A stretch of 64,000 bases of DNA from a virus, in IMG/VR virus record IMGVR_UViG_3300014059_000004; one strand, given 5' to 3'. The notes beneath the pieces are model-generated. The model made no database searches. It saw nothing but the letters and a program-made list of their open reading frames with translations, and was not told where the DNA came from. Positions within the stretch are counted from its first letter, which is position 1. Each line of letters starts with the position of its first letter. The position numbers and the translations under genes were made by a program. Shown piece by piece: positions 13,177 to 64,000 of this stretch.

Positions 13177-16100
13177 ATGAAGACATTTACGTACCAAGAA
13201 GCTCGTGATGCATCGGTTGACTATTTTTCTGGTGACACTCTAGCTGCTGATGTTTTTGTGTCCAAATATGCGTTGCGTGATTCAAATGATCAAGTTCTAG
13301 AGAGCACACCAGAAGCCATGCATCGTCGCCTGGCGAAGGAGTTCGCTAGGATAGAGTTGAACTACAAAAACTCTATTTCGTTCGAAGAAATCATGGAGTA
13401 TTTCAGCTCTTGGAAGATCGTGCCTCAAGGATCGCCGATGTCTGCGATTGGAAACACGAAGCAGATCCAGTCTCTGTCAAATTGCTTTGTCATTGAATCG
13501 CCGTACGATTCTTACGGCGGAATCATGAAGACCGACCAAGAGCAAGCTCAGATCATGAAGCGCCGCGGTGGTGTTGGATTCGACATCTCGTCAATCAGAC
13601 CAAAGGGATTGGTCACAACTAACGCTGCTCGTACGACCGATGGCATCGGTGTTTTCATGGAGCGCTTCAGCAACACTTGCAGGGAAGTCGCGCAAGGCGG
13701 TCGCCGTGGTGCTTTGATGATGACAATCTCTGTTCATCACCCAGAGATTCGCACGTTCATCAACATCAAGAAGAACGTTGAAAAAGTTACAGGCGCAAAC
13801 ATCTCGATCAGGTTGACTGATGAGTTCATGCGATCAGTGAAGGCTAGCGAGAAGTTCCAGCTAAGGTTCCCAGTTGAAGCAAATGCACAGCATACGATCA
13901 AAGAAGATGTCGACGCTGGTGAACTGTGGAATGAGATCATCGAGGCTGCTCATGCATCAGCTGAACCCGGTTTGCTATTTTGGGACAACGTTGTCAACAA
14001 CGGCCCAGCAGATGCATATCCCGGTTTCAAGTCTATCTCTACGAATCCTTGCTCTGAGATTGCTCTTTGCGCTTACGATTCGTGCAGATTGCTGCTTCTT
14101 AACGTTTCAAAGTTCGTAGAGAATCCTTTCACTGACAGAGCAAACTTCAACATCAAAGAGTTCAAGAGAGCTGCGTACGTTGCTCAACGCTTGATGGACG
14201 ACTTGGTTGATCTTGAGCTCGAAGCCGTCGATAGGATCATCGACAAGATCAACTCAGATCCAGAACCAGACGACGTAAAGAAGAACGAGCTAGATCTTTG
14301 GTTGAAGATCAGGGAAAAAGGTGCCTCGGGCCGTCGCACTGGTTTGGGAATCACTGGTCTTGGTGATGCCATTGCGTACGTTGGGTTGAAGTACGGATCA
14401 AGGGAATCTATCGATTTCACGGAAGATCTGTATAGAATGTTGGCTCTTTCTGCGTACCGTTCGTCAGTTGACATGGCGGCAGAACGTGGAGCATTTCCTG
14501 CGTTTTCTCACAACGTTGAAGCTGGTCATCCGTTCATTGAAAAGATCTTGGCACATGATGATGAGCTAAGGGCTGCATACAAGGTTCACGGTCGTCGTAA
14601 CATTGCCTTGACAACAACTGCACCCGCTGGATCAGTTTCAATCCTGACTCAAACAACGTCTGGTTGCGAACCTGTTTTTGCAGTTAGCTACAAGCGCAAG
14701 AAGAAGATCAATTCGAACGACGTCACGACCACAGCCAACTTTGTTGATGATCTTGGAGATCGTTGGCAAGAGTATACTGTCTACCATCATGGATTGAAGA
14801 TGTGGATGGATGTGACTGGAAAGACAGAGGCTGATATCGATGAATCGCCTTACAAGGGTTCTTCTAGTTCTGAGATCGATTGGCATGCTCGTGTTGACCT
14901 TCAAGCCGCAGCCCAAAGATGGATCTGCCATGCAATTTCCAGCACTGTCAACTTGCCATCAGATACGTCAGTTGAGACAGTTAAAAACATCTACATGCGA
15001 GGTTGGGAATCTGGGTGCAAGGGAATCACAGTGTATCGTGATGGTTGCAGAGCAGGCGTTCTATCGACAGAAGAGAAAAAGCCAAGTATTCAAGGAGCGT
15101 CAACCGATGGCTTGAAAGCCCTTCTTGACATTGTCACTAAGAACGTTAGCAGCATTCCATCAGCTGATTTGTACAAAAAATTGATTGAAGAAGAGCTCAC
15201 GAGGAGAGAGCCGACTCAACCAGAAAAGGTCGTCGAAGTTCATGCTCCGAAGCGTCCAAAAGAGCTAGAGTGTGACATCCATCGAGTCAACATCAAAGGC
15301 GAACAGTATCTTGTCTTCGTCGGATTGCTGAACGGCGTTCCATACGAAGTCTTTGCCGGTCTGTCAGAACACGTTGAAGTGCCAAAGAAAGTTAAGAAGG
15401 GAATCTTGATCAAGAATGGCAAGAAAGACGGCGTTGCAACGTACAATCTAAAGATTCCGGTGGGAGATGATGATTTTGTGACGTTCAAAGACGTTGTTAA
15501 CTTGTTTGACAACCCAACTTACGGTTCGTTCACCAGAACGTTGTCTCTAACGTTGAGGCATGGCATCCCGCTTCAGTACATCGTCGAGCAGCTTCGCAAA
15601 GACAAGCACAGCGACATGATGTCATTTTCAACTGTCATTGCTAGAGTCTTGAGCAAGGGTTACATCGTCGACGGAACGAAAGCAACGCAAGAAAAGCAGT
15701 GCTCAAGTTGCGGTTCTGATCAGCTAGCGTACATGGAAGGTTGCCAGACGTGCATGAACTGCGGAAGTAGCAAGTGTTCCTTATACTTAACTCCAAGACG
15801 AAAGGTTGATGACGTGAAAATCAAGATCACACCGCAGATGCTGAGGCAGCTTGTTAATGAAGAAGTTCTGAACGTGAAGCGCAAGGGAACTTTGAAGGAA
15901 GCCTTTGGACCATACGATGCTACTGGCGAGTATGATGACAAGGAATATGGCATGCAGCCGTGGAACTTTGAAGAGTCACACAGGGAATTGTTTGCGCAAG
16001 CGCTTGAACCGGTTATCAATGAATTCATGGAGTCTTTGGCTGAGATCGCTGAAAGAGCTTCACCACCAGATGCTAACATGTCTGCGCAAGATATTGGTAG

Positions 16101-16557
16101 CGATGAATACAACAGTTTCGGTGAAGACCTCAAAGAAGATCTTTTGAAGGTCATTGCTCAACACATGAAGAATGCGTCTGAAAATTTTGGTCTTTTAGAG
16201 GTTAACGTTATGAAGATAAAGCTAAGTGATCTGCGAAAGATCATCAGAGAAGTTGCAGTTTCACCTGCTGTCTTCAAGAGCAGCCAACCTGCAAAAGATC
16301 CGATGGAGAAGAAGAACATTGTCAAAGCGGTCTCTGATTTGAAGACAGCGTTCGAATCAGCGCTTCTAAGCAACCTTGTTCTTGCGAACCCAGAGAAGTA
16401 CGATGAATCCTCGAGAGAATTTGATGATCAGATGTACGAATCTCTTAAGACAACAGCGGCCTCAGCATCTGAACAAGTAGCATCAAAGATCAATGATGCA
16501 GTTCAGACTGCATGGGTTGCTGCACACAAAAACTCTAAGGTAAATCACTTAAAGTGA
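13177..16557 (+). CDS. nrdJ: ribonucleotide reductase, probably class II (NrdJ-like), with a roughly 250-aa non-RNR C-terminal extension
   Basis: Active-site 'NPCSEIAL'. C-terminal Zn-ribbon 'CSSCGSDQ...CQTCMNCGSSKC'. No nrdB partner. The extension carries two in-frame copies of the leader motif (see findings). Confidence 0.7.
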   Translation: MKTFTYQEARDASVDYFSGDTLAADVFVSKYALRDSNDQVLESTPEAMHRRLAKEFARIELNYKNSISFEEIMEYFSSWKIVPQGSPMSAIGNTKQIQSLSNCFVIESPYDSYGGIMKTDQEQAQIMKRRGGVGFDISSIRPKGLVTTNAARTTDGIGVFMERFSNTCREVAQGGRRGALMMTISVHHPEIRTFINIKKNVEKVTGANISIRLTDEFMRSVKASEKFQLRFPVEANAQHTIKEDVDAGELWNEIIEAAHASAEPGLLFWDNVVNNGPADAYPGFKSISTNPCSEIALCAYDSCRLLLLNVSKFVENPFTDRANFNIKEFKRAAYVAQRLMDDLVDLELEAVDRIIDKINSDPEPDDVKKNELDLWLKIREKGASGRRTGLGITGLGDAIAYVGLKYGSRESIDFTEDLYRMLALSAYRSSVDMAAERGAFPAFSHNVEAGHPFIEKILAHDDELRAAYKVHGRRNIALTTTAPAGSVSILTQTTSGCEPVFAVSYKRKKKINSNDVTTTANFVDDLGDRWQEYTVYHHGLKMWMDVTGKTEADIDESPYKGSSSSEIDWHARVDLQAAAQRWICHAISSTVNLPSDTSVETVKNIYMRGWESGCKGITVYRDGCRAGVLSTEEKKPSIQGASTDGLKALLDIVTKNVSSIPSADLYKKLIEEELTRREPTQPEKVVEVHAPKRPKELECDIHRVNIKGEQYLVFVGLLNGVPYEVFAGLSEHVEVPKKVKKGILIKNGKKDGVATYNLKIPVGDDDFVTFKDVVNLFDNPTYGSFTRTLSLTLRHGIPLQYIVEQLRKDKHSDMMSFSTVIARVLSKGYIVDGTKATQEKQCSSCGSDQLAYMEGCQTCMNCGSSKCSLYLTPRRKVDDVKIKITPQMLRQLVNEEVLNVKRKGTLKEAFGPYDATGEYDDKEYGMQPWNFEESHRELFAQALEPVINEFMESLAEIAERASPPDANMSAQDIGSDEYNSFGEDLKEDLLKVIAQHMKNASENFGLLEVNVMKIKLSDLRKIIREVAVSPAVFKSSQPAKDPMEKKNIVKAVSDLKTAFESALLSNLVLANPEKYDESSREFDDQMYESLKTTAASASEQVASKINDAVQTAWVAAHKNSKVNHLK

Positions 16558-16817
16558 AGATAACAGAAGCAGATCTCAGGAAGATCATCTCAGAAGAACT
16601 TTTGAGAGGTGTTCCTGAGTTTGTCATACGTCAGGCTTCAAGCGATTGCGTCGATCGTGTTCGACAGCACGTAACTCGGTTCATCCAGCAAAGAGCAGAG
16701 AATCAGACACACGCTCGCGAGCTAACAAAGCTAGCAAACCAGCTGCTTGAAGAGCTTGAGGACGAGATGTACGATCTGATCGAAGACAAGCTTCTAGCTT
16801 TCGTTCAAAGAACATAG
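16554..16817 (+). CDS. small protein of the shared N-terminal-leader family
   Basis: GTG start. 'VKITEADLRKIISEELL' leader. Confidence 0.4.
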   Translation: MKITEADLRKIISEELLRGVPEFVIRQASSDCVDRVRQHVTRFIQQRAENQTHARELTKLANQLLEELEDEMYDLIEDKLLAFVQRT

Positions 16818-23243: not shown

Positions 23244-23326
23244 GAAGCTATCGCAACAGGTTCACTTAGTCGATAAAGGATGCAAGGATCAATCAATCGT
23301 TCACCGGCTGAATATTGCGAACTAGT

Positions 23327-23434: not shown

Positions 23435-23503
23435 TGAACTTAAACGTGTGATCCCTTTCTGTAAAAAATCGACGTCAACACGATAAGTTGACTAACTCTA
23501 GAT

Positions 23504-23535
23504 GGCCCGGGTAGGATACACCCGGGCCGTCGCTA
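23504..23535 (+). terminator. GC-rich hairpin (ggcccggg...cccgggcc) followed by 'taatttt'
   Basis: 8-bp perfect stem, 9-nt loop, T-rich tail. Just upstream of pnk. Confidence 0.4.
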
Positions 23536-23582
23536 ATTTTGGGACAGTGCACTTATTGCACTAACAGTGTTAGGATAAAAGA

Positions 23583-24563: not shown

Positions 24564-24599
24564 CATGTTGCTGTCTGACACGAAAAGGTTTCAGCAACG

Positions 24600-24857
24600 A
24601 TGAGTGCTGTGAAGCACATCATGTTCGGCCTCGTTGCGGTGGAAGACTTTCAAAAAGTCGCTGATCGATTGTACGAACTGGGTGCTGAGGGTGTAGATCA
24701 GCTCTACAGGGACACTAACTCTGTAGAGCTGGCATCTCGGTGCTACGTTCAAGTTAACGAAAGCTGCCATGATTCCATCTTGGATGAACTGAAGAGTTCA
24801 TCCAACGTTTGTGACATCATGATTCCAGCGCAGAGAGTGGTAAGAAAGAGAGCGTAA
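24600..24857 (+). CDS. hypothetical protein
   Basis: 85-aa ORF. Confidence 0.3.
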   Translation: MSAVKHIMFGLVAVEDFQKVADRLYELGAEGVDQLYRDTNSVELASRCYVQVNESCHDSILDELKSSSNVCDIMIPAQRVVRKRA

Positions 24858-24858
24858 C

Positions 24859-25644: not shown

Positions 25645-26513
25645 CGGAGTATTATTCACGCATGCCAAAAATTGCATGGGCCACAGATATCCACCTTGAC
25701 ACTCTGGAGAAAACGCCAGAGAAGATCGTTCAGTTCGCAGAATCGTTGATCGTCGATCAACCAGATGCAATCGTTTTGACGGGTGATCTTTCAACGTACG
25801 CTGATCTAACGTACCACCTGTCTATCATCGAACGTGTTGTCCAGCGACCTGTTTACTTCGTCCTTGGAAATCATGATTTCTGGGGCGGCGGCGTCTCTGA
25901 CGTTCGTCTTGAGATGAAGAACCTCAGCAACATGTCGCAGTTCTTGCGATACTTGCCGAACACTCCGTACGTGACGTTGTCACCAACAACAGCTCTTGTT
26001 GGTCATGACTGTTGGTACGATGCGGGCTACGGGTCACCGATGACAAGCACGATGATCATGAATGACTGGATCAGGGTGAAAGATTTTGCCGTAGAGCACT
26101 GCGTCACGTACGGAGATACGTACGGATCATACAAGACTAACAAACCTAAGGTCATCGAGATCTCGAAGAAGCTAGCGTCTGAAGGTACAGCGCACATCAT
26201 CAATGGCATAAAAACAGCGGCAAAGTATCACAAAGTGATCATGATTGCCACGCACTTTCCACCATTCCAAGAGACTCATCTCTACAATGGTAAAGTTGGC
26301 GATGCAGCTGCACAGCCATGGTACACGAACAAGATGCTCGGTGACGTTCTTCGTCAAGCAGCATCACAGCTTCCAAAGGTCAGGTTTGAGGTCTTTGCTG
26401 GTCACACTCATGGGAAGTGTGACATGCAGATCAGCGACAACTTGTTTGTTCACGTTGGCGAAGCCGAGTACAAGCAACCACGCTTGCAGAATGTCATCAC
26501 GGTGCCTTTATGA
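25605..26513 (+). CDS. calcineurin-like metallophosphoesterase (alternative start 25662 'MPKIAW')
   Basis: 'DIHLD', 'LTGDLSTY' and 'VLGNHDFW' metallophosphatase motifs. Confidence 0.6.
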   Translation: MPDAASVGKNVRITEYYSRMPKIAWATDIHLDTLEKTPEKIVQFAESLIVDQPDAIVLTGDLSTYADLTYHLSIIERVVQRPVYFVLGNHDFWGGGVSDVRLEMKNLSNMSQFLRYLPNTPYVTLSPTTALVGHDCWYDAGYGSPMTSTMIMNDWIRVKDFAVEHCVTYGDTYGSYKTNKPKVIEISKKLASEGTAHIINGIKTAAKYHKVIMIATHFPPFQETHLYNGKVGDAAAQPWYTNKMLGDVLRQAASQLPKVRFEVFAGHTHGKCDMQISDNLFVHVGEAEYKQPRLQNVITVPL

Positions 26514-27769: not shown

Positions 27770-28726
27770 ATGAAGCTTCATCCTCTTGTCGCAAAAGATC
27801 GTTTCATGCCGAAAGATGATTTCATTCGTTGGTTTGAGATGAATGGTTTCCTCACAAATGCAGCGTGGAATCTGATTGACATGGCGTTCAAACACGGTGC
27901 TTACATTGCTGGCGGGTTTGCTAACAAGGTTGCCACAGTTAAGAACTGCGGCAAGTATCGCGGTGATCTTGAAGAAGATACGATGAGAGAGTTTTTGATG
28001 TATACGAACTACGAACTGAGACATCCGTATGCTTACAAAGTTCATGGTGGAGACATTGACGTTTGGTTCCGGACGAAAGAAGGTCTAGACGCGTTTCTTC
28101 TTGAGCTGAACGGGAATTTTGAAAATTCGATGAAAGATCGGACGCCCATGACGTCTGGGTTTGGTATTGAAGTGAAGTGTTGGCAGCACCCAGATCCTGC
28201 ACCCGAACCTCGTAGGGATTATCACGGGCAGGTCGTTCAGATCATGACTGCTGTGTGGGGTGAACCAGAAGAAATCATGGAGAAGTTTGACATCTACAAT
28301 GCAGCTGTTTGCATCACAAAAGACTGCCAAGTCTTGGTTCCGGAAGGTTGGGAAGATCTCAACGCCAAGGGAATCTTGCACCTTCAACATTTCAATGAGA
28401 AGTATACGTTCCAACGAATTACTAAATGGGCGCAGAAACACGGTTACGTCGGTGGTTTCACGCCGGGTGCAATTGAGATCTTGAAAGAGGCACAACCTAA
28501 ACTCATTGAAGATATCTTGAACTCAAAGATCCCGCGCTACAAGCCCGGAGTTACATGGAACATGCCAGAATTTCTGAAGAGATGGACGCTTCCAATGAGG
28601 AAGCTTCTTCCGATCGAAATCATCCTCAATTTTGTTCCAGTCGGTGGTCAAAAAGACAACTACAAAGAGTATTTCAACCCTTTCATCATTGAGTTGATCC
28701 ATCGTGGGGCAAAAGGAGTGCAATAA
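27770..28726 (+). CDS. hypothetical protein
   Basis: 318-aa ORF. Confidence 0.35.
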   Translation: MKLHPLVAKDRFMPKDDFIRWFEMNGFLTNAAWNLIDMAFKHGAYIAGGFANKVATVKNCGKYRGDLEEDTMREFLMYTNYELRHPYAYKVHGGDIDVWFRTKEGLDAFLLELNGNFENSMKDRTPMTSGFGIEVKCWQHPDPAPEPRRDYHGQVVQIMTAVWGEPEEIMEKFDIYNAAVCITKDCQVLVPEGWEDLNAKGILHLQHFNEKYTFQRITKWAQKHGYVGGFTPGAIEILKEAQPKLIEDILNSKIPRYKPGVTWNMPEFLKRWTLPMRKLLPIEIILNFVPVGGQKDNYKEYFNPFIIELIHRGAKGVQ

Positions 28727-28765: not shown

Positions 28766-29293
28766 ATGAACCGCGCTCTGTTGCTCAACGCAGACTATTC
28801 ACCGTTGCATTTCATTAGCGATGAACGTGCAATCGTTCTCGTGTACATCGGTCACGCCGAGGTTGTCGAGATGAACGGTGCGCCATCTGTGTGGTCGGGC
28901 GAGTACTTTGTTTCGCCTTCCACGAAGATTGCGGTGCCAGCAACCATCAGGCTGACTTCAAGAATCACCAAGAAGTGGAAGCAGCCTCGATTCAGGCGAA
29001 AGGTCTTGTTCAACCGCGACGGGTGGAAGTGTCAGTACTGCTCTGAAGAGCTTAATTGGTCTTCCGTCACGATGGACCACGTTCATCCAAGTTCACGAGG
29101 TGGAGACACTTCGTGGAAGAACTGCGTCGCGGCATGCAAGCCTTGCAATCGCAAGAAGGCGAACAGGACTCCTGATGAAGCGAACATGCGCCTCCTGAAG
29201 GTACCAGTGAACCCAACGCCGCTGCACTTTTGGGACATCTCTAAAACCTCCGCAGTCCACCCTGACTGGGAGGCATTTATCCCAAAGATGTAA
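28766..29293 (+). CDS. free-standing HNH endonuclease
   Basis: 'CQYCSEELNWSSVTMDHVHPSSRGGDTSWKNCVAACKPCNRKK' HNH/Zn motif. Confidence 0.6.
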   Translation: MNRALLLNADYSPLHFISDERAIVLVYIGHAEVVEMNGAPSVWSGEYFVSPSTKIAVPATIRLTSRITKKWKQPRFRRKVLFNRDGWKCQYCSEELNWSSVTMDHVHPSSRGGDTSWKNCVAACKPCNRKKANRTPDEANMRLLKVPVNPTPLHFWDISKTSAVHPDWEAFIPKM

Positions 29294-29305: not shown

Positions 29306-29533
29306 GTGAGCGGTAAGAAAAAAGCAGAAACGCTGCGGACCACGGTCGGAGAGATTCGATCTGTGGTCCGCAGCCAATTTAGGCTCTTGAATGAAGCCTA
29401 CGATCATGATTTGCTAGATGATCCAGCATTCAATGAAGAATCTATGCTTGTTCCAGATTCGACGAAGGTTCTGATAAAAAAGTACCTAGAGCTGATGGGC
29501 CTAAGTAATAGCAGATCTCACGGTTCAAGTTGA
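29306..29533 (+). CDS. hypothetical small protein
   Basis: 75-aa ORF. Confidence 0.25.
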   Translation: MSGKKKAETLRTTVGEIRSVVRSQFRLLNEAYDHDLLDDPAFNEESMLVPDSTKVLIKKYLELMGLSNSRSHGSS

Positions 29534-29563
29534 GTACAATACTTAGAACGTAGGAGAAGCTTT

Positions 29564-30694
29564 ATGCACGTTAGGTTGAAAGATCTGCAGAACCTCGTAA
29601 GCAAGGTTCTTAATGAGGAAACTGTTCTTAGGGAACTGCGAGAAGAAGTTGCATCGAAGCTGGGTCCATCAGTCAACACTGCTGGTTCGCTCCAGCAAGT
29701 TGCTGAAGAAGCCATCTACAGGTTGGATGTGCTTGCTAGAACCGGTCGCAAGCATGAAATCTTTGATGAGCAGCTTAGCGCAAAGCTATCGACGATGAAA
29801 TCATCTGCTGCACGTGATCTTGCAGCTCGAATGTTGCCAGAACGCAAGCTTTTGAAGCTTGCTACTGATCCATCGCCAGCAGTTCGTCACAGCGTGGCAC
29901 GTCGAGTTCCTTTCAAGGTTCTCGTTGAGATGAAGAAGAAGTACAGGAATGACGACGAGCTAAACGTCATCTTTGAGAGCAGGAAGCTAAACGAAGCTGG
30001 TTTGCCGAAGCCAAAGGTTGATGACGAACAGTTTGACATGTACGGCGAAGAAGCTCTTGGCGATGCTGTGAAGCAACGTGATGATATTGAACTGTCTGAT
30101 CAATGGTACGAATCTCTTGCAGGGAAGTTCATCCAAGATTACGGAACGAACCTTGAGGGGCAGTGGGAAGAGCTTCTTGTGAAGAGATATTGTTCTTCTG
30201 TTAAAGCAACGTCTGGTGTTGAAGTTGACACAGAAAAACTTCTGAAGTGTGTTAAAGACTTGCTTGAAGAAAGAGAAGAGCTTCACCTAAAGAGGAACGA
30301 GCTTAAGGAATCTGCTTCCAGGCGTGCTTCACACATGCTGCCTGAGTACGTTGAATCCAAAGATCCAGTGAAAGAACTGTTGCATACAAACTGCTCTGCA
30401 TCGCAGTACGTGGCTCTAGCAAAAAGCGTGTTTAAGATCTCTGAGACAATTGCGTCGCACAGCGTTCGTAACGGCAGGCTCAACGAAGGTCTAGACATCA
30501 GCAACGTTGTTCCTTTCTCTGGGCGCTTGCCTTCAAAGGGTGAATTCCGCAACGTTGATGAACGTGCAGTTCAGCGTTACGTTGATTCTTGGAACATGAT
30601 CCAAGAGAGCAAGGGTGACATTGTGAAACTCACGTGGTCGCCGTCTCCGGCACAGCGTGGAAGATTTACGCTAAAGATCATGGAAAAGTTATGA
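29564..30694 (+). CDS. leader-family protein (376 aa)
   Basis: 'MHVRLKDLQNLVSKVLNEE' leader. Confidence 0.4.
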   Translation: MHVRLKDLQNLVSKVLNEETVLRELREEVASKLGPSVNTAGSLQQVAEEAIYRLDVLARTGRKHEIFDEQLSAKLSTMKSSAARDLAARMLPERKLLKLATDPSPAVRHSVARRVPFKVLVEMKKKYRNDDELNVIFESRKLNEAGLPKPKVDDEQFDMYGEEALGDAVKQRDDIELSDQWYESLAGKFIQDYGTNLEGQWEELLVKRYCSSVKATSGVEVDTEKLLKCVKDLLEEREELHLKRNELKESASRRASHMLPEYVESKDPVKELLHTNCSASQYVALAKSVFKISETIASHSVRNGRLNEGLDISNVVPFSGRLPSKGEFRNVDERAVQRYVDSWNMIQESKGDIVKLTWSPSPAQRGRFTLKIMEKL

Positions 30695-31245: not shown

Positions 31246-31778
31246 AAAAAGTTCAACGAAGCCTGTCTCCGCTTGAATTTGCAGCTGCTAAGTCTTTCCA
31301 TCTAAAAGTAGTCTGTCATTCTCGACGACCGTACTTGATCACTAAGTGGAGGCGCATGCCAAAGAGCTCGGAAGCATTGACATGTTGGTGCGCTAAAGAT
31401 CCTCACTTCGGTAAAGTGTATATCACGCTAAAGTATACGGTGGACGTTCCACCACAATCTATAAAGAAAGGTCGTCCTATCACGAGAAAAACATGGCTCG
31501 TGACGTTGGGTTCTGAACCGTTCGAGTACAAACCAGATTGTGATTCTGTGGTCTTCAAACGCTACGTGATCAGCAATGAAGAAACAAGGGTTGAGCTCAT
31601 CCAGCATGCATTGTCCAACCAGATGTTTGCTATGTTTGGCATCAACGTCTATAAGACAGACGGTTTTAAGATAACAGAAACAAAGAAGAGGATCGAAGAA
31701 ACGAAGCTTGTTGCATCAGTTCCTTCGAAGAATTTGAATCGTGGTAGAGATACTTACACTTGGAAGTTAAACCAATGA
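31209..31778 (+). CDS. hypothetical protein
   Basis: 189-aa ORF. Confidence 0.3.
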   Translation: MLLAEAKVLFRLKKVQRSLSPLEFAAAKSFHLKVVCHSRRPYLITKWRRMPKSSEALTCWCAKDPHFGKVYITLKYTVDVPPQSIKKGRPITRKTWLVTLGSEPFEYKPDCDSVVFKRYVISNEETRVELIQHALSNQMFAMFGINVYKTDGFKITETKKRIEETKLVASVPSKNLNRGRDTYTWKLNQ

Positions 31779-32470
31779 AGATGAAAATTTCGACTCTCCG
31801 GAACGTGATCAAGGAAGTTCTTGAGACTGTTGCTGGTCAGGATGACGCCGCTGAGTTTGACGCAGCTCTCGCTGCTTACGCAAACGACTGGAAGAACTTT
31901 ACTCGTGAGACGCCAGAAGTTGATCCAGTCGAGGCTGCTGAAGCTGCTGCTGATGGTTTCTTTTACGACAATCCAGGTTGGCAGAAGTGGTCGATTGGAA
32001 CTGGAATGTCACGTGAAGACATGGCTCAAGCAGTTGTCGATGCCGTGTACAGCGCTATGATGAATGGTCCAGTGACTGAAGCTACAGAAAAAGAAAGTGA
32101 GTACGGTCGCACGGGCGCTGATCCTGGTCCATACCCAACGCCAGAAAATTTTTGGGTTAACCGTCGTGACGGCAACGGTTCCTACGATGCGAAACACCGT
32201 TGGGGTCCTAACCCACCTCCGGGTGCCAAATACGAAGAGTCGTTTGATGACGGTCATCTTAAGCCAGGACCAGTAGTCATCAACAATCGCTTCTGGTACG
32301 ATAACATCGAAGTCATGGATGACGACGAGGCCGAGCAGAAGCAAATCATAAATCTAAAGCCTGGTGAGTCGTGGCACACCGGCGGCGGATTCCACGGTAA
32401 CGGATACACGGTAACGAGGGTTTCTTTACCACTTAAGGGCCCACCAAGGCCCACAGAATTAATCTTCTAA
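31760..32470 (+). CDS. leader-family protein, Gly/Pro-rich
   Basis: 'MKMKISTLRNVIKEVLE' leader. Confidence 0.4.
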   Translation: MEVKPMKMKISTLRNVIKEVLETVAGQDDAAEFDAALAAYANDWKNFTRETPEVDPVEAAEAAADGFFYDNPGWQKWSIGTGMSREDMAQAVVDAVYSAMMNGPVTEATEKESEYGRTGADPGPYPTPENFWVNRRDGNGSYDAKHRWGPNPPPGAKYEESFDDGHLKPGPVVINNRFWYDNIEVMDDDEAEQKQIINLKPGESWHTGGGFHGNGYTVTRVSLPLKGPPRPTELIF

Positions 32471-33340: not shown

Positions 33341-34351
33341 ATGTCGAAGAAAGTTCTGATCACGGGTATCGCTGGTTTTCTTGGTTCGCATCTTGCGTTG
33401 CATCACATCGCAGCCGGTGATGAGGTGATCGGTCTGGATGATTTCTCTTCGTCGAAGAGAGATTCTCTTCATCTTGCTACGATCAAGCGCCTCATGGCAG
33501 AGAAGAAGTTGGGGGAAGTCTATGAGTGCGACATTGCAGAGCAGAAGCAGGTTCATTACTGCTTGCAGAAGCACGCAATGAAAAAGTCACCAGCGGGAAT
33601 TGATCTGATCTATAACTTCGCTTGCCCTGCTTCACCGCCTCGATACCAACAGATTCCAACGAAGACGATGATGACATGCGTGGCCGGAACTAACAACATC
33701 ATCGACGTTGCTATGTGTAACAATTCTGTAGTTGTGCACGCCTCAACGTCTGAAGTGTACGGCGATCCGGATATCACTCCTCAAGTTGAATCTTATAGGG
33801 GTTGCGTGAACCCTTACGGTCCCCGAGCATGCTACGATGAAGGCAAGCGCGCAGCAGAAGCGTTGTGCTACGATTCTCTTTTCAAGTACGGCGTAGACGT
33901 ACGTCTCGTTAGAATATTCAACACGTATGGCCCTCATCTTGATGTAACAGACGGACGTGTAGTTTCAAACTTTATAACTCAAGCCTTGTACAACAAAGAT
34001 ATCACAATCTATGGTGATGGTTCTCAAACAAGGTCATTTTGTTACGTAGATGATCTGATACGTGGAATTGTTTCTTTGGGAGCCTTGAGCTACAATCCAA
34101 AAACGCCCATTAATTTGGGAAATCCAAATGAGTTTACCATTAAAGAACTTGCAGATGTTGTTATGTCTTTGATTCCAAGTAGCAAATCAAAATTTGTATG
34201 GCAGTCCATACCTATTGATGATCCACTTCAGAGAAAACCAGATATTACTATAGCGAAAGAAATTCTTAAATGGCAACCGAGTGTGCAATTGCTGGAAGGT
34301 CTTCAGAAGACGATACACTACATTCAGAACGTGAATGTGCAATTTACGTGA
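33341..34351 (+). CDS. NAD-dependent sugar-nucleotide epimerase/dehydratase (UDP-glucuronate decarboxylase-like SDR)
   Basis: 'VLITGIAGFLGSHL' Rossmann motif. 'TSEVYGDP'. Catalytic 'YDEGK' (YxxxK). Confidence 0.65.
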   Translation: MSKKVLITGIAGFLGSHLALHHIAAGDEVIGLDDFSSSKRDSLHLATIKRLMAEKKLGEVYECDIAEQKQVHYCLQKHAMKKSPAGIDLIYNFACPASPPRYQQIPTKTMMTCVAGTNNIIDVAMCNNSVVVHASTSEVYGDPDITPQVESYRGCVNPYGPRACYDEGKRAAEALCYDSLFKYGVDVRLVRIFNTYGPHLDVTDGRVVSNFITQALYNKDITIYGDGSQTRSFCYVDDLIRGIVSLGALSYNPKTPINLGNPNEFTIKELADVVMSLIPSSKSKFVWQSIPIDDPLQRKPDITIAKEILKWQPSVQLLEGLQKTIHYIQNVNVQFT

Positions 34352-34998
34352 TCACTAACAATGTTAATAACAAACGATATGTTGGGAAATCTGTTCAGCC
34401 AACTAGACGTTGGCTTGGGCACAAATCTTATGCCCGACGTGGTGATCTAAGAAGATTGTATTGTTCGATGCGAAAACATGGCGTTGAACAGTTCAAATTT
34501 GAAATATTGACGTGGTGTGATAGTGAAGACGCTGCTTTTCTTGAAGAAAAAAGAATAGTAACTGAGTGGAATCTATGTGATCCACGTGTAGGTTATAACT
34601 TGACTAGTGGTGGTCGTGGTGGATGTAGAGTGTCAGATCAAGTACGTCATAGAATGAAATTGCGTGAACCTTCAATGAAGGGTCGTAAACACACTGAAGA
34701 AACAAAGCGTCTATTGTCAATAGCTAGCTCTGGTGCTAATAATGCAAATTTTGGTAAACATAAAAGTGATGAAACTAAGCAAAAAATGAGTGATTCACAA
34801 AAAGGTCGTAAATTTACTGATGATCATCGTGAAAAGCTACGCCAGGCGAAGCTTGGAAAAAAGACAGGACGTAGTATACCACCAGAAATGGCTATAGCAA
34901 GAAGAAATATGAAAGGAACTATCGAGGCAAAAGAAGCTGCTAAATTGGGTTGGATAACACGTCGTGCCAAAATTAATGATGATACTGTAAATCAGTAA
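34270..34998 (+). CDS. free-standing GIY-YIG homing endonuclease
   Basis: 'IYVITNNVNNKRYVGKS...RRWLGHKS' GIY-YIG. Repeated basic NUMOD-like modules. Confidence 0.55.
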   Translation: MATECAIAGRSSEDDTLHSERECAIYVITNNVNNKRYVGKSVQPTRRWLGHKSYARRGDLRRLYCSMRKHGVEQFKFEILTWCDSEDAAFLEEKRIVTEWNLCDPRVGYNLTSGGRGGCRVSDQVRHRMKLREPSMKGRKHTEETKRLLSIASSGANNANFGKHKSDETKQKMSDSQKGRKFTDDHREKLRQAKLGKKTGRSIPPEMAIARRNMKGTIEAKEAAKLGWITRRAKINDDTVNQ

Positions 34999-41000: not shown

Positions 41001-41183
41001 TGCGCTGAAGTTGAGAGGAACGAGTTTGGAATGTCGACTGCGGTGTTCAAGATGAGAAAATTGGGATTAGCGCTTGCTGCCCATCTTCAGATTCTTGGAA
41101 TCATTAGCGCTCCAGTTGTATCCACCGCCGACAGCGCCGGGTCCACCACCATGAGAGAATCCAGTTGGATTTCCCCATGCTGA
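37851..41183 (+). CDS. dnaE: split-intein IntC (about 37890-38009) fused to DnaE (Pol III alpha) C-terminal extein (palm, fingers, beta-binding, OB)
   Basis: 'VYDITVEDTHCFFADGSLVHN|CIGG'. Then 'LGPARGSGGGSLVNYVLYITDLDPVKW', 'GAPDIDSDV' and 'GIFQL' DnaE signatures. Confidence 0.75.
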   Translation: MTNSSNQSMTAMQMTTEFVEIDSISIDEETPDVYDITVEDTHCFFADGSLVHNCIGGFPSWSVFQVLQGISFDNLNQSLLDDKALLDKCVDAVGNTYDMMVSAVGEGNYFLELQFNRLPAQNLVNRAIIEFATRNGLQKQLVVTGDAHYYNPDVWKERELYKKLGWMNYQTIDPNSLPKSRDELKCELYPKNAPQMWDEYLKSKVDTSFYDDQIICDAIERTHDIAHHLIGEVKPDRSQKFPTERLIPPGEKSFNHLVKLCKDGMVKRGLDGKDEYLDRLKEELGVIKQMKNADYFISYQKIIELARKVVLLGPARGSGGGSLVNYVLYITDLDPVKWDLPFSRFLSVHRVGAPDIDSDVADRDKVLDQLRNFFGYENVVPISNYNAFKVKSLLKDISKFYGIPFDEVNAATRTVEDSVRRATMKEGDDKNLFVLTYDEGLKYDKAFSDFIARHPEVGESMNVLFKQNRSLGRHAGGVLIADDLPNKMPLITSKGEPQSPWVEGVNFKHLEKIGNFIKYDILGLETLRLIERTIELILIKEGNAAPTFDDIKTWYENNMSPDVIDLDDQEVFKVYSEGRHAGIFQLTSKGAQQLFKKARPKSIIDIAALTSIYRPGPLAAHVDKLWLKHEVEPYDWGHPLINATLEKTRGLLVFQEGVMALVNKVSGFPLSETDEVRRAIMKRSISGGEAAKKKMKELEDSIVAGAVKNGVPEATARKMYETICFMSGYGFNASHAVAYAIDSYWCAWLLTHYEEQWLCAYLESMSNTPEQRAKAFSEVKALGYQIVPIDINQAALGWTVLPGKKLMPSMTSCKGVGDSAVEEIMENRPYETIEDLLWDDEFNWKHSKFNKRALEALIKIGAFGSMNIVGEGKLFSSYKHMHDVIVGSHVETVTKKRKGEVSTFEAEIDHNALIKRHPKSDPTEGLKNFFELVRKYAGQPDWSSIEKTQNMVEVFGTLDVTAMIDPRLLDALDGKGVVPVEDVELGEIKVCWFVVTPTSPKKGAKPVTGVKRKTKNGKEYVQLFATGPTGKPNRISVWGCKELLQPFTLYCAEVERNEFGMSTAVFKMRKLGLALAAHLQILGIISAPVVSTADSAGSTTMRESSWISPC

Positions 41184-41570
41184 TCCCATGCCAGTTCCAC
41201 CACCGCCCGAGCCTGCGAAAGGATTCCTGCCGTGTGCTCCAGCTCTAAATCCTCTGACGCTCTTTGTCACGTTTCTGCCAACAAACTTGAACCCAAGATC
41301 GCCAAGTTCTTTCTTGATGTGCGCAAGATCGCTAGCACCAGCTTCAGAGACTTCCATCTTTGAACCATACTTTGCTTGCGTCATGTTGCGTCCAAGAGCA
41401 TGCAAATCGATGAAGTTGTATTCATAGTTGTCATCATCTAGCTTGCTCTCTATGAAAGCCTCCAATGACATGTATTCAGGATTTTCTCGCAATTCGTTGA
41501 TTTCTTCGTCAAGATCATCCTCAAGCACTTCTGATATCAAACGTCTCAAGGCACCTAGTTGCAGCTTCAT
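41067..41570 (-). CDS. leader-family protein with Gly-rich C-terminus (minus strand)
   Basis: 'MKLQLGALRRLISEVLEDD' leader. C-terminal 'GSGGGGTGMGSAWGNPTGFSHGGGPGAVGGG'. Confidence 0.4.
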   Translation of the reverse strand: MKLQLGALRRLISEVLEDDLDEEINELRENPEYMSLEAFIESKLDDDNYEYNFIDLHALGRNMTQAKYGSKMEVSEAGASDLAHIKKELGDLGFKFVGRNVTKSVRGFRAGAHGRNPFAGSGGGGTGMGSAWGNPTGFSHGGGPGAVGGGYNWSANDSKNLKMGSKR

Positions 41571-41609
41571 GCTGTGTAAATATCGCGTTAATGTGTTAAA
41601 CTGGTAAAT

Positions 41610-51967: not shown

Positions 51968-52646
51968 TAAGACGATCAGAGATGCGCTATCGCGTTCCGC
52001 TGCAGTGAAAGAAGTTGGAAAGATCAACGAGTCCTACGTTGCAGAACCGAAGCCGTTCAAGCAAGTCTCTGAGATGGTTTCGCAGAAGACCAAAGAAGCG
52101 CACACAACTCTTTACCGTGAGTACGTTGACACGTTGAACAATGTTTCTGCGCAGCTTGACACTGCTGACAGGGGCGCTTCAAATTCAAAGCACAGTGACT
52201 TCAGGTCATTGAAGCTTGATGAAGCGTACAACCTCAATGCTGTGTGGCTTCATGAGCTGTACTTTGCGAACTGCTACGATCCTCATTCTGAGATCGTGAT
52301 GGATTCAATCGCTTACATCAAGCTGCAGAGAGACTTCGGAACGTTCGAAGATTGGCAACGTGACTTCATCGCATGTGCCATGGCTGCTGGAAATGGATGG
52401 GCTGTTTGCGGGTACCACACTTTCTTGAAGAAGTACATCAACGTTCCAATCAGCCACCACAGTGGAGATATCCCACTAGGCTTCTACCCAGTGATCGTTG
52501 TCGACATGTGGGAGCATGCATACGCTAGAGACTACTTGACCGATAAGAAGAGCTACTTGATCGCTCAGATGAGAGAGATCAATTGGGAAGTTTGCGAAGA
52601 TCGTTTTAAGAGAGCTGAAGCAATCGGCGTGGCGGTGAAGTCATGA
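51930..52646 (+). CDS. Fe/Mn superoxide dismutase-like protein (divergent)
   Basis: 'HTTLYREYVDTLNNV', 'NGWAVCGYH' and C-terminal 'VVDMWEHAYARDY' (SOD 'DxWEHAYY' motif). Confidence 0.4.
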   Translation: MSKKNILEGLDLDKTIRDALSRSAAVKEVGKINESYVAEPKPFKQVSEMVSQKTKEAHTTLYREYVDTLNNVSAQLDTADRGASNSKHSDFRSLKLDEAYNLNAVWLHELYFANCYDPHSEIVMDSIAYIKLQRDFGTFEDWQRDFIACAMAAGNGWAVCGYHTFLKKYINVPISHHSGDIPLGFYPVIVVDMWEHAYARDYLTDKKSYLIAQMREINWEVCEDRFKRAEAIGVAVKS

Positions 52647-53212
52647 AGACTTTTAAGGTTCGCTTGGGTGATCTTCGGCGTGTTCTAAGAGAAGAGATTC
52701 TCAGAGAAGAAGGCGAAGCGCCAACGCCACCAACAGAAGAGCCGGGAGAAGATTCACTAGACTCTCAGGTCGATCGTTACTTGAATGACTATGAAAAAGA
52801 AGCAAAGTCCGCAAAGACCGAGGGTCGCGATTGGCGAATGACTGTGCGTCGAATCGTTGAAGCTGGTGAAGATGACGACAAGGGTGATGATTCTAGCGAT
52901 GAACCAAAGAAGCTTACTGTTGAAGACATTGACGTGGGCTCTTTTGTCAACGGCGTTGTCAGGTTGATAGACAACTACGACTCCTTGCTAGAAGTTAGAA
53001 ATACGATCTTGCGTAGGGCGTCAAACTTCTTGTCGAAGAATTACGATGAGTCAGTTGCTGATTCATTCAAAGAGCAGCTTCGCAACGAGCATGGTATGGA
53101 GATCGGTAAGTCAAGGGATGAAATGGAAGATGAATTCACTGCACCTCCAGCTGATCGAGCAGGTGATGGAGGCGTCGGCGGAGGAGGAGCAGTCTTAGTT
53201 CATGAAATCTGA
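52643..53212 (+). CDS. leader-family acidic protein
   Basis: 'MKTFKVRLGDLRRVLREEIL' leader. Gly-rich tail. Confidence 0.4.
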   Translation: MKTFKVRLGDLRRVLREEILREEGEAPTPPTEEPGEDSLDSQVDRYLNDYEKEAKSAKTEGRDWRMTVRRIVEAGEDDDKGDDSSDEPKKLTVEDIDVGSFVNGVVRLIDNYDSLLEVRNTILRRASNFLSKNYDESVADSFKEQLRNEHGMEIGKSRDEMEDEFTAPPADRAGDGGVGGGGAVLVHEI

Positions 53213-54726: not shown

Positions 54727-55053
54727 ATGGAAGAAGAGAAGAAAGCCGCTGATCCAACTGAGGTTCAGTCTAAGTGGTATTGGGTGAAAGACGCAGCTGG
54801 ACATGGAAGCGTCACAGTCACTCTTGTCTTCGTATCATTTTGGGTTACAACGTTGGCTTACGTGCTCTCCATGTTTGAGACGCTTGGTCCTATTCATGTC
54901 CGTCCATTCGATGTTGCTGCATGTGCCAGCTATTTTGCTCCTATCCTTGCGTTGTATTTTGGACGACGCTATACTGATGCGAAGCTTGGCAATCCTAACA
55001 TCCCGCAAGCAGAAGCTCCCAAGGGCGAATTATGGCACAAAAGATCACTGTAA
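54727..55053 (+). CDS. two-TM small membrane protein (holin-like)
   Basis: Start moved to the ATG with 'gagg' RBS. TMs 'VTVTLVFVSFWVTTLAYVL' and 'AACASYFAPILALYFG'. Confidence 0.35.
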   Translation: MEEEKKAADPTEVQSKWYWVKDAAGHGSVTVTLVFVSFWVTTLAYVLSMFETLGPIHVRPFDVAACASYFAPILALYFGRRYTDAKLGNPNIPQAEAPKGELWHKRSL

Positions 55054-56783
55054 CCAGGACAGCGTTGCGTGAGCTTGTATCAGAGCTTCTTGATAACAAG
55101 AAGTTCGGGCAAGTTTGCCTTGAAGAGGCGGATGATCCGGTTGATGTCAACCCAGTTGTTGATCAGTCAGCAATACTTACTGATCCTAGCAATCCGAACT
55201 ACAAGCCAAACAACAAAGCTGAATTTCAAGTTGCTGTGAAGGCCCTAAGCGACGATCTGCCAGACGAAAAAGTTTCTGACGTGTATGAAAAGCTAGTGGG
55301 GGCCCTTGACGTGCCCGACGAAAAGGAAGATACGATGAAAAACAAGAAGACGACGGGCACAAAGAGCGCTAAAAAAGACACGGCAGCTGAATCACTCATC
55401 AGGCTAGCTGTTCGCAAGCAGCTGCAAGAACTTAACATTGTTTCTGAAGCGCCATTTGACAAGAAGCCAAAGAATTTCGGACCAGTCGTTGGACCGCTTC
55501 CGCCTGTCACAAAGATCCCAGCCGGTGTTCATGGCGGTGAGTACATGGCAAAGTTTGACAAGTCGAAGAGAGACCTGAAGAAGGTCATGAAGAACCCAGT
55601 TGAAGACCCCCTTGACGACGTACAATCAGACGTGCCAGAGAGGGCAAAGTTCAACACTGTGTCAGACGTCTCCGGAGCATCGTTCCAAGATATCGCCAAG
55701 GATCTTGGTTTTTCAGTCGCTGGCGCGAAGCAAGCTGTCGATAAGGCAATGCTGAAGGCACAGTGGGTTGCTGACATGCAAGATAAGTCGCCAGAGGATC
55801 TTGAGATCATCGTCTTGTCGAGCATGAACGACTACATCAAGATGCTGAGCCGTTCGGGTGAGCTATCGGCTTCTGATGTTGCTCTCATGAAAGCACATCC
55901 AGACATCGTCAGAGATCTAGATGGTTTCCGCGAATTTCTTGACAAATCGATCAGGCGTGCACGTGGTGGTGAGAAGCTGTACAATCCAACTGCACCAACG
56001 AGTGCTGCACCAGAAGAGTCGGGCGCAGAGTCAACAAGTGAGCCAGCAGCTCCAAAGGCACCAAGAGAGCCAAAAGCCAGCAAGGATTCGTACAAGGTTT
56101 ACAAGGGCGGCCAGAAGTACAACGGTGCTTCTGTTGTCACTCGCTACAAGGGCAAAGTCTTTGGCAAGATGGGTGCATCAGAGTTCAAGCCAGGAGAGTC
56201 TGGCATTGTCTCGCCTGAAGATGGCAAGCTGAAGGTTAAGAAGCCAACTGGCGATCACACCCAAGTTTGGGAACCAGTTGGTGAATCTCGCTCCCGGACT
56301 CGCACAATCAAGAAGGGTCCGCTGACGATCGTTCTCGAGACGATGGGCTCACCCGTTGATGAAGATCTAGTCTCTAGGAGCGAAGTTGAACAGCTCGTTT
56401 CTTCCGGTGCATCATCTATCACAGACCCAGTTTCGTTGGAGTCTGCGCTTAACGATGCTTTTGGTGATCGTGAATTCAGCCCAGAAGCCCTAGAGTACAT
56501 GTACGATGTTTTCCCTGACATCATGCAGAGCCTTGAGGGTCTTGAGCCATCTGCAGAAGAGCAAGAGTATCATCACACGGGTGATGCACCTTGCCCAACT
56601 TGCGGCGGCGCGAACACCCACCAAGCAGAAGCTGACGAAATTTACTGCGCAGATTGCGACTCTACGTTTCCGCTAGTGTTAACCACAAGAAAGAGAATCA
56701 ATGAACGACGTAGCAATAGTTGCCGCGGCGCAGTTCAACCCAGAGCTGCTCAACGTCCAGAAGAATCTGGCTGTTGCTACTGA
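55032..56783 (+). CDS. leader-family large protein (583 aa)
   Basis: 'MAQKITVTRTALRELVSELL' leader. Confidence 0.45.
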   Translation: MAQKITVTRTALRELVSELLDNKKFGQVCLEEADDPVDVNPVVDQSAILTDPSNPNYKPNNKAEFQVAVKALSDDLPDEKVSDVYEKLVGALDVPDEKEDTMKNKKTTGTKSAKKDTAAESLIRLAVRKQLQELNIVSEAPFDKKPKNFGPVVGPLPPVTKIPAGVHGGEYMAKFDKSKRDLKKVMKNPVEDPLDDVQSDVPERAKFNTVSDVSGASFQDIAKDLGFSVAGAKQAVDKAMLKAQWVADMQDKSPEDLEIIVLSSMNDYIKMLSRSGELSASDVALMKAHPDIVRDLDGFREFLDKSIRRARGGEKLYNPTAPTSAAPEESGAESTSEPAAPKAPREPKASKDSYKVYKGGQKYNGASVVTRYKGKVFGKMGASEFKPGESGIVSPEDGKLKVKKPTGDHTQVWEPVGESRSRTRTIKKGPLTIVLETMGSPVDEDLVSRSEVEQLVSSGASSITDPVSLESALNDAFGDREFSPEALEYMYDVFPDIMQSLEGLEPSAEEQEYHHTGDAPCPTCGGANTHQAEADEIYCADCDSTFPLVLTTRKRINERRSNSCRGAVQPRAAQRPEESGCCY

Positions 56784-63407: not shown

Positions 63408-63687
63408 TGAAGGCAGCGATGAGCTTGATCCTGAGTACGATCAAGTTGTCGTTGATGTCTTCCGCTACGCTGGTTTTCTTGACGAATGGTCGGCGATAAA
63501 GAAGCAGCTGCTGCTCAACATGCGCGTTGAGATGAGGCCTGCGTTGAATTCTTACGATCCCGTGCTTAAAAAGCGCGTCATCACGAGAGTAGATAGAGCG
63601 CTGGCTGCACGTTGGTCGGAATTGTCTGGCCGCAAGGTCATATTTAAGGGTGATGAAAAGCCAACGCAGCAAAAGGATCCTACGTGA
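63400..63687 (+). CDS. hypothetical protein
   Basis: 95-aa ORF. Confidence 0.25.
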   Translation: MDDEGSDELDPEYDQVVVDVFRYAGFLDEWSAIKKQLLLNMRVEMRPALNSYDPVLKKRVITRVDRALAARWSELSGRKVIFKGDEKPTQQKDPT

Positions 63688-64000
63688 GTACATAAGAGAG
63701 ATCCTGAAAGAGGATGATGGGTACGGTGGCATGATGGGTGCTGCGTACGACATGATGCCTTACGGTGCCCATTTTGCCTCACAAGATGCTCTTTATTCAA
63801 CGTTTGTCAAGCCGTTCGTTGACGTTGTGCAAGTTGCTGCTGGCAAGACGAAAGAAGTCAGCAAGCGAGCTCAAACTCTGTTCAAGGTCTCATTTGAGGC
63901 TTTCATGGTGTCGATCATCCCGTGGTTGACAACCGAGTTCAAAGAGATCTTTGATGAAGAGAAAGATGCTCTTGCGAAGATCAAGTCAGAGTACAACGAT

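Follow-up and report, generated by a model that had tools for sequence, protein, structure and literature searches.

A conserved N-terminal leader on unrelated proteins of uncultured phages is a candidate capsid-loading signal

Short terminal peptides that are sufficient to direct diverse cargos into an HK97-fold shell are known from encapsulins (cargo-loading peptides) and from phage P1 (Dar N-terminal signals), although these concern other shells and other peptides, and encapsulin tags are usually C-terminal and are not removed by proteolysis. In phage T4, whose internal proteins are basic, such a role belongs to the capsid-targeting sequence (CTS) of IPI, IPII and IPIII, reportedly described by Mullaney and Black in 1996. 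The CTS principle has so far been demonstrated only in T4 itself (PMC9026906), where the 10-residue CTS of IPIII is sufficient for encapsidation, with separable targeting (4, 7) and processing (8, 10) residues (PMC9026906, PMC3012670), and where the gp21 protease cleaves after Glu in L/I-x-E (PMC9026906). The propeptides of Alt, gp67 and gp68 are also gp21 substrates in T4, and Asp at P1 prevents processing but leaves targeting intact. The T-even internal proteins are diverse and have the CTS alone in common (PMC3012670), and the early-acting packaged proteins of T4 (IPI*, Alt) include an anti-restriction protein and a modifier of the host RNA polymerase (PMC3012670, PMC9026906). The giant phages phiKZ, 201phi2-1 and SPN3US load many proteins into the head, and their head and inner-body (ejection) proteins lose propeptides by cuts on the C-terminal side of Glu in a three-residue motif, with redundant sites (PMC9026906). 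Here we analyze a 64,000-nucleotide stretch of the IMG/VR virus record IMGVR_UViG_3300014059_000004 (the window, hereafter, meaning the whole stretch), in which an initial annotation had singled out the open reading frame (ORF) at position 29564 as one of about nine otherwise unrelated proteins sharing a conserved N-terminal leader, and had proposed that this leader targets proteins to the capsid for proteolytic processing, packaging and injection. On the best-supported reading, the leader would correspond to the T4 CTS in function without being homologous to it and would be cut after Glu14; it is probably a portable capsid-loading tag and propeptide used by a large uncultured phage lineage whose heads are of the T4 type and whose members include huge phages of 250-480 kb.

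The window contains eight clear copies of the leader, six at ORF N-termini and two in frame within the tail of nrdJ, whose ORF starts at 13177. The copies were identified with a 22-position leader hidden Markov model (HMM), seeded with the eight window copies and nine copies from the relatives L001 and L002 and searched against six-frame segments of the window. The members of the family in the window, together with a degenerate ninth member and a weak tenth candidate, are the following:

15814..16209, + strand: leader module 1, VKIKITPQMLRQLVNEE, in frame with nrdJ and with no stop; leader HMM match
16210..16557, + strand: leader module 2, 115 aa, MKIKLSDLRKIIREV, in frame with the nrdJ ORF in this strain; leader HMM match
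16554..16817, + strand: leader protein, 87 aa, VKITEADLRKIISEELL; leader HMM match
29306..29533, + strand: degenerate ninth member, 75 aa, LRTTVGEIRSVVRSQ; supported by orthologs, below HMM significance alone
29564..30694, + strand: flagged ORF (ORF29564), 376 aa, with a variant leader, MHVRLKDLQNLVSKVLNEE; leader HMM match
31775..32470, + strand: leader protein, 231 aa, acidic cargo, MKMKISTLRNVIKEVLE; leader HMM match
41067..41570, - strand: leader protein, 167 aa, Gly-rich C-terminus, MKLQLGALRRLISEVLED; leader HMM match
52643..53212, + strand: leader protein, 189 aa, acidic cargo, three extra N-terminal residues, MKTFKVRLGDLRRVLREEILREE; leader HMM match
55032..56783, + strand: leader protein, 583 aa, four extra N-terminal residues, MAQKITVTRTALRELVSELL; weakest HMM member, E=6e-4
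63653..64000, + strand: weak tenth candidate, 358 aa, running off the window, MKSQRSKRILREYIREILKED; HMM match not significant

The HMM search returned exactly eight copies, the weakest of them (ORF 55032) with a domain E-value of 6e-4 and the next match at E~0.5. This recovery is partly circular, since the seeds match by construction, and the real evidence therefore lies in the E-value gap and in the independent loci described below. Matches to a core pattern of the leader fall almost exclusively just downstream of stop codons; counting matches to L[RQ].[ILV][ILV].[EK] within 35 residues of an upstream stop and followed by at least 60 further codons, the window holds seven, against a mean of 0.35 and a maximum of three in 200 second-order Markov shuffles. 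The conserved Leu and Arg residues are encoded by codons from both parts of the six-fold families (CTN/TTR and CGN/AGR), namely CTG, CTC, CTT and TTG for the former and AGG, CGA, CGG, AGA and CGT for the latter, so that the leader is conserved at the peptide level and is neither a DNA repeat nor the codon bias near the ribosome-binding site (RBS) that the initial annotation had named as a possible refutation. [ILV]-x-E ends at residues 14-18 in all eight copies, and only eight or nine of the approximately 100 genes in the window carry the leader.

All eight copies listed by the initial annotation are present in the translated ORFs and are recovered by the leader HMM with a clean E-value gap, and its count of about nine holds once the ORF at 29306, recognized through its orthologs, is added. 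Its sizes and its description of Gly-rich and acidic cargos were correct, as was its statement that the downstream sequences are unrelated: with the leader removed, BLASTP detected no mutual similarity among the eight window cargos. Most of its coordinates stand, with two corrections: the first copy in the nrdJ tail starts at GTG 15814 instead of 15808, and the ORF that it had placed at 31760/31778 starts at ATG 31775, the same start as that chosen by an independent gene caller. The cargo of ORF 16554 has leader-bearing orthologs in L001 (1143) and L034 (980), and the protein encoded by ORF 55032 ends in a C-terminal Cys4 zinc-ribbon-like motif.

Beyond the window, ortholog loci on a 104-kb contig (L001) and a 298-kb contig (L002) carry crisper copies of the leader, such as MKITTTQLRRIIKEE. 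A scan of IMG/VR with a degenerate DNA pattern for M-K-[ILF]-[ST]-x3-L-R-x-I-[IV]-x-E-E retrieved at least 120 stretches on contigs of 4-293 kb, and the family counts given below (logo, cargos and neighbouring genes) are drawn from the loci fetched. The leader HMM identifies at least 249 leader ORFs in 124 sources, with a median length of 115 aa and Met at profile position 1 in 94% of them. The logo reads M-K-I-T-K-R-Q-L-R-R-I-I-K-E-E-[LIV], and its information content falls to approximately zero after residues 16-22; it is partly shaped by the search pattern, and the positions left unconstrained (Q7, K/R13 and the hydrophobic residue 16) agree with it, as do the additional copies found by the HMM only. 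Glu14 is present in 97% of copies, and residue 12 is Ile in 92% and Val in 6%. The net charge of residues 1-13, which are followed by E-E, averages +4, and the leader M-K-[IL]-[TS]-x-x-x-L-[RK]-x-[ILV]-[IV]-[KR]-E-E-[LIV] is predicted to form a basic amphipathic helix. Charged and hydrophobic residues alternate along it with no hydrophobic run comparable to the h-region of about ten or more residues that follows the basic n-region in Sec, Tat and lipoprotein signals. No Pfam, PHROG or NCBIfam family covers the leader, either in the window leader proteins or in 106 leader proteins of at least 120 aa, and a search of the accessible literature for the motif found no record of it. The peptide, the strength of its conservation, its breadth and its presence in huge phages appear undescribed; the principle itself is known from T4.

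The proteins that follow the leader are diverse. BLASTP comparison of 230 leader-removed cargos gave 192 clusters, 167 of them singletons, and leader genes also occur in hypervariable tandem arrays with as many as 10 members. The median pI of the cargos is 5.1, most being acidic and 20% basic. More than 95% of the 106 leader proteins of at least 120 aa have no match in Pfam, PHROGs or NCBIfam, the exceptions being AAA_33 kinase-like proteins (2), PAP2, FliG_C, a tRNA-ligase CPD domain and an EF-hand; weak sub-threshold library matches (Tad5, Lar, HEAT and others) were disregarded. The P-loop AAA_33, or polynucleotide-kinase-like, leader proteins lie at L080 4786-5502 and L113 794-1510, in both cases directly upstream of an S77 protease, and represent an enzyme cargo. 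Two canonical leader ORFs (MKISKRQLRRIIKEEKR) were also found at positions 12874 and 14019 of IMGVR_UViG_GVMAG-S-1030632-100_000001 (L021), a 17-kb contig labelled as a giant-virus metagenome-assembled genome that is probably a mis-binned phage fragment.

The genomic surroundings of the family were assessed by clustering the larger ORFs neighbouring the leader loci and annotating the clusters with Pfam and PHROG, which identified the following genes:

Terminase large subunit (TerL), 28 loci: PHROG terminase large subunit
Portal_T4 (PF07230), 30 loci: E=8e-77
Peptidase_S77 (PF03420, T4 gp21 family), 22 loci: E=1.6e-30
Gp23 (PF07068), 9 loci: E=7e-76
Acidic scaffold-like protein, 8 loci: no match
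Tail sheath, 8 loci: PHROG tail sheath

At least 12 loci display the gene order TerL-portal-c2-c7-LEADER(s)-protease-(LEADER)-...-scaffold-major capsid protein (MCP); set against the T4 order 20-67-68-21-22-23, this places many leader genes in the gp67/gp68 slot or in the gp22 slot. The proteases of these loci align with T4 gp21 at 30% identity, with the His of GELDHP, the Ser of GISSRG and an invariant Asp conserved, and many keep an N-terminal LL-x-E comparable to LIE-9 of T4 (PMC9026906). They form a deep uncultured branch, identity to the nearest cultured proteases reaching no more than 45% across 89% of the query. The leader HMM found no match in the portal, protease, scaffold and MCP proteins, indicating that the core head proteins do not use the leader. 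Leader ORFs were likewise present within the head modules of both loci selected purely by S77 similarity (L142 and L143, on contigs of 248 and 313 kb), with one ORF between TerL and portal and two between protease and scaffold; the product of one of these ORFs is 81 aa long and acidic in its tail, recalling T4 gp67 both in size and in composition. Two of the leader-associated loci have interrupted head genes: the S77 protease at L071 13181 is split by an intein, and the portal at L143 4760 contains two intein/HNH insertions. The nearest head modules among cultured phages are those of Flavobacterium phage immuto, cyanomyophages and Melnitz. The Flavobacterium phage immuto (L134) encodes a 73-aa ORF (5654-5875) between a c2 homolog and an S77 protease; it starts MKKSQIVKAVQEVLEE and resembles a very diverged leader, with a non-significant HMM match, and immuto may be the nearest cultivable system for the leader idea.

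A search of 50,697 phage records with three 22-aa consensus queries matched, apart from one chance match in a Streptomyces phage, only LR756508.1, a complete 484-kb uncultured phage and the sole deposited genome with the leader motif. Its head module comprises TerL at 141.9 kb, portal at 145.8 kb, c2 at 150.1 kb, leader ORFs at 152.4, 155.1 and 155.8 kb, the S77 protease at 156.5 kb, a leader ORF at 161.6 kb, the scaffold at 170.1 kb and Gp23 at 171.9 kb; a fourth leader ORF near the protease, at 154.8 kb, passes the smaller search only. Further leader arrays are located at 189-195 kb and at 219 kb. Of the 12 leader ORFs with E<0.01, 11 map to the 152-220 kb region, in the surroundings of the genes for portal, S77 protease, scaffold, MCP and sheath. 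The S77 protease frame at 156474 (L132) spans 576 aa and is interrupted. The region 244.4-251.6 kb of this phage is collinear with six window ORFs, at 5139, 6022 (RecA-like), 9039 (exonuclease), 10019, 11875 (DnaB) and 13177 (NrdJ), with 29-36% identity. This shared replication block, the only such bridge, appears to link the window lineage to a phage with a T4-type head and protease, and it is solely from relatedness to LR756508.1 that an S77 protease would be expected in the window's own genome.

Among 222 leaders, 98% have the putative cleavage motif [ILV]-x-E ending at residue 14, and the motif shows a second peak at residues 21-22 (43%, versus 1.8% per position downstream), with a second [ILV]-x-E lying within residues 16-27 in 68% of proteins, versus 16% of control windows. 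The leader family shows no enrichment of [ILV]-x-D. Like the T4 CTS and propeptides, the leader is a short N-terminal peptide on unrelated proteins, ending in [L/I/V]-x-E, whose genes lie beside, or share genomes with, Peptidase_S77, a T4-type portal and Gp23, and whose cargos are diverse, fast-evolving and arranged in arrays, with many members in the gp67/gp68/gp22 slot. It differs from the CTS in being longer (14-16 versus 10 residues), strongly basic, attached to mostly acidic cargos and far more conserved over a much wider set of phages. The CTS of IPIII, which we take to be MKTYQEFIAE, bears no resemblance to the leader consensus. With phiKZ-type systems the leader would share the loading of many proteins into a giant-phage head, a three-residue motif ending in Glu and redundant sites; there, however, the motif of the gp175/gp245-type proteases is S/A/G-x-E, whereas P3 is I/V/L in the leader, and the protease of the leader loci is a clear S77 match at the Pfam level. 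To our knowledge, phiKZ-type propeptides are long and do not constitute a shared conserved leader.

From these features we infer a sequence of docking, cleavage, packaging and injection. The positively charged, hydrophobic-faced helix of residues 1-13 would dock the cargo on the acidic scaffolding core of the assembling prohead. Once the shell has closed, the gp21-family (Peptidase_S77) protease would cut after Glu14 at [IV]-x-E, with a back-up [ILV]-x-E site often available approximately 7-8 residues further on, and the cargo would be freed inside the head. Some cargos would remain there and enter the host with the DNA, and others, very acidic ones above all, would probably be accessory core proteins, to be degraded and expelled like T4 gp67 and gp68. 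Injection is the weakest part of the interpretation put forward by the initial annotation: because the cargos are mostly acidic, many could be degraded core proteins instead of injected ones, and accessory core proteins may make up a substantial fraction of them.

ORF29564, the starting point of the analysis, carries a leader that appears from its sequence to be a variant form. The protein has 64 homologs, each approximately 385 aa long, on contigs of up to 346 kb, and the 43 homologs aligned define the N-terminus MRLKLxELQ[RK]VVKxx[IVL]xEE, in which Met1, Leu3 and Leu8 are kept and [ILV]-x-E lies four residues, or one helical turn, later, at residues 16-18. An AlphaFold2 model of the protein (predicted local distance difference test score of 85) contains a single helix at residues 5-32, and its cargo part is modelled as HEAT/LRV-like helical repeats followed by an alpha/beta C-terminal part; a fold search of the model against PDB and BFVD returned only weak HEAT/LRV-like repeat matches (E>=0.06), and tblastn against the 50,697 phage records returned none. 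Synteny around the ORF is conserved in the ortholog loci L152 (110-kb contig) and L153 (226-kb contig), and the L152 protein is also present on a 346-kb contig. Directly upstream of the ORF29564 homolog, L152, L153, L002 and L001 encode small leader ORFs starting MRLTLGELRRLLRE / MQITIGQLRKMIRE, which are orthologs of the window ORF at 29306. In the latter, Ser replaces Glu14 and is followed by LLNE, suggesting a leader that has decayed in this strain and is canonical in the four relatives.

The two copies in the nrdJ tail were described by the initial annotation as in-frame internal copies. They are indeed in frame here, the nrdJ ORF (13177-16557, 1126 aa) running without a stop through both leader modules, as it does in four independent assemblies. 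In the sister strains L137 and L140, however, the ORF is 1008 aa long and module 2 stands apart from it as a 115-aa gene in another frame, with the N-terminus MKIKL[SK]DLRKIIREV, implying that module 2 is a cistron that starts independently. For module 1, six of six independent assemblies show the fusion to nrdJ; this module is preceded by an AAAGG RBS-like site and by the heptamer ATACTTA at 15783, with GTG 15814 as start codon; in the relative L002, NrdJ terminates right after its C-terminal Zn-finger. Both copies are better read as cistron starts, and their interpretation as internal domains was set aside given that module 2 is a separate gene in the sister strains. L002 contains a further in-frame leader-leader fusion, at 11700/11937, whose inner copy lacks Met.

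Several observations weigh against a capsid-loading role. The leader genes of the window lie among replication and nucleotide-metabolism genes, not head genes, and searches for S77 protease, portal and MCP genes found none in the window, none in the 13 kb read on either side of it (8.4 kb past its end and 4.9 kb ahead of its start) along the 101-kb metagenomic contig Logan SRR1145916_2123 on which it lies, and none up to 10 kb away from ORF29564 orthologs of relatives; the two flanks likewise yielded no other head genes and no further clear leaders. Glu14 is not conserved in ORF29564 and its 43 aligned homologs, and the helix in the ORF29564 model continues beyond the proposed cut site. The enrichment of Glu over Asp could reflect helix propensity instead of protease specificity, the acidic nature of most cargos is unlike that of the basic T4 internal proteins, the leader HMM scores below 3 bits against T4 gp67, gp68, Alt, gp21, gp22, gp23 and gp24, and no cultured phage in INPHARED carries the leader. 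The comparison with the T4 CTS made by the initial annotation therefore survives as far as a tag on unrelated cargos, with a near-constant Glu14 and an adjacent S77 protease in relatives, and fails as regards similarity to T4 propeptides and the loss of Glu14 in ORF29564 itself; the gp21-type protease that it had proposed to look for is present at 22 related loci and in LR756508.1, L142 and L143, and was not found in the window or the flanks read. Supporting the capsid-loading interpretation, the hypervariable tandem leader arrays resemble the diverse T-even internal proteins that share the CTS alone (PMC3012670). A broader version of it, in which the leader is a universal tag of this vast uncultured lineage and N-termini alone define the packaged and co-injected set of each phage, is possible, and we put it forward tentatively. 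The tag would then also tolerate in-frame fusions, among them NrdJ-cargo-cargo in the window and the L002 ORF with two leaders, which the protease would resolve like a polyprotein, and the packaged set would likely comprise hundreds of fast-diversifying families, including enzymes, and be rich in counter-defence and take-over effectors.

It is unlikely that the leader proteins are accessory prohead-core or scaffold parts only, whose helix co-assembles with the scaffolding core and which contribute to head construction or sizing before their degradation and expulsion, with nothing delivered to the host. Mostly acidic cargos, like T4 gp22, gp67 and gp68, would suit such a role, as would the gp67/gp68 slot beside the protease being the commonest leader position and the resemblance of 81-aa members with acidic tails to gp67 in size and composition; but the extreme diversity of the cargos (192 clusters, mostly singletons), the hypervariable tandem arrays far from the head module and the 20% of basic cargos argue against it, and enzymes such as AAA_33 and PAP2 proteins fit poorly with a function restricted to assembly. 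We regard as quite improbable, though conceivable for the window's own genome, a docking helix for a shared partner that has nothing to do with the capsid (for example a host factor, a phage chaperone or regulator, the surface of a membrane or of DNA) or a common oligomerization element, with the proximity to head genes being incidental. The leader is a generic basic amphipathic helix, its genes in the window are located among replication genes, and no S77 protease was found in the window or the flanks read, all of which such a partner would accommodate; the repeated synteny with portal, S77 protease and scaffold, seen also in the protease-selected loci and in a complete genome, would be hard to explain, as would the near-invariant Glu14, the Ile or Val at residue 12 and the second [ILV]-x-E peak, and there is no hydrophobic stretch suited to Sec, Tat or membrane insertion. 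Finally, the position of the motif at the very 5' end of genes and the ATACTTA heptamer upstream of several of them might evoke a translational or nucleic-acid feature (RBS-proximal codon bias, an mRNA element or a DNA repeat) or plain chance, but synonymous codons vary freely at the conserved residues, the leader is confined to a small minority of the window genes, shuffled sequences give 0.35 matches versus the 7 observed, and the peptide is kept across hundreds of divergent contigs. Such explanations are exceedingly improbable, and the DNA-repeat, codon-bias and chance variants were rejected on the basis of codon variety, shuffles and cross-contig conservation of the peptide.

The ATACTTA heptamer and its surroundings merit a separate description. 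It occurs on the + strand at 4791, 10677, 15783, 29293, 29539, 31750, 51615 and 60899 and on the - strand at 32949 and 62895, with the variant ATATTTA at 41583 (-) and 63640 (+); the copy preceding the flagged ORF is located as follows:

29539..29545, + strand: ATACTTA, 25 nt upstream of ORF 29564

ATACTTA is also found upstream of the leader starts at 15814 and 31775 (25 nt in the latter case), and ATATTTA lies 13 nt upstream of the leader start at 41570. Its count is not over-represented in the window, and six of 11 sites fall 7-45 nt upstream of independently called gene starts, versus 0.35 expected by random placement, with several further sites preceding plausible starts. From its placement, ATACTTA is a candidate promoter element that precedes three to four leader genes.

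Megablast of 20 kb against the 50,697 phage records found no match, and hence no near relative among deposited phage genomes. The window encodes PolA, a RecA/UvsX-like protein, a 5'-3' exonuclease, an intein-bearing DnaB, NrdJ, an intein-bearing DnaE and ThyX, as well as an RNA-repair set and many homing endonucleases. Intein signatures were identified in DnaE (36130-41183), whose PHP/Hint part was assigned an ORF of its own upstream of the main one, in DnaB (11875-13116) and near a split dUTPase (8684-9079). Genes of homing-endonuclease type (GIY-YIG/LEM-3, zf+NUMOD3 and HNH) are located at 17188-17943, 10716-11897, 34270-34998, 36941-37900 and 28766-29293; the GIY-YIG gene at 17188 is present here and absent from four sister assemblies, pointing to an active presence/absence polymorphism. 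A TnsA-like endonuclease domain lies in or beside the dCMP deaminase (50185-51504). The RNA-repair-like cluster (21299-26513) comprises an RlaP-like nucleotidyltransferase, a Pnkp-like kinase/phosphatase (AAA_33 + HAD_PNKP), an RNA ligase and a metallophosphoesterase, and is followed by an N6/N4 DNA methyltransferase in an arrangement conserved in L152 and L153. Two genes upstream of the leader pair 29306/29564, a 318-aa protein (27770-28726) has a precomputed Pfam match to PF26128 (Gad2), presumably the family of an anti-Gabija counter-defence protein. A Sod_Fe_C match (Fe/Mn superoxide dismutase C-terminal domain) lies immediately upstream of the leader gene at 52643, and the other auxiliary genes encode a pterin-4a-carbinolamine dehydratase, two nucleotide-sugar epimerases and an HSP20-like protein (auxiliary gene coordinates, including Sod_Fe_C: 51930-52646, 57453-57827, 33341-34351, 47119-48087 and 19537-20421).

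If the leader is a capsid-loading tag, the packaged proteins of unculturable phages could be listed from sequence only, and some of the proteins so listed may, as in the case of T4 IPI* and Alt, be delivered to the host, where they are the first to act in infection. The tag would mark a large, coherent pool of candidate effectors, the cargos being nearly all of no known function, and could provide a candidate means of loading foreign proteins into such capsids. The CTS principle would then reach well beyond T4 into the T4-head superfamily, through a peptide that differs from the CTS and is much more strongly conserved.

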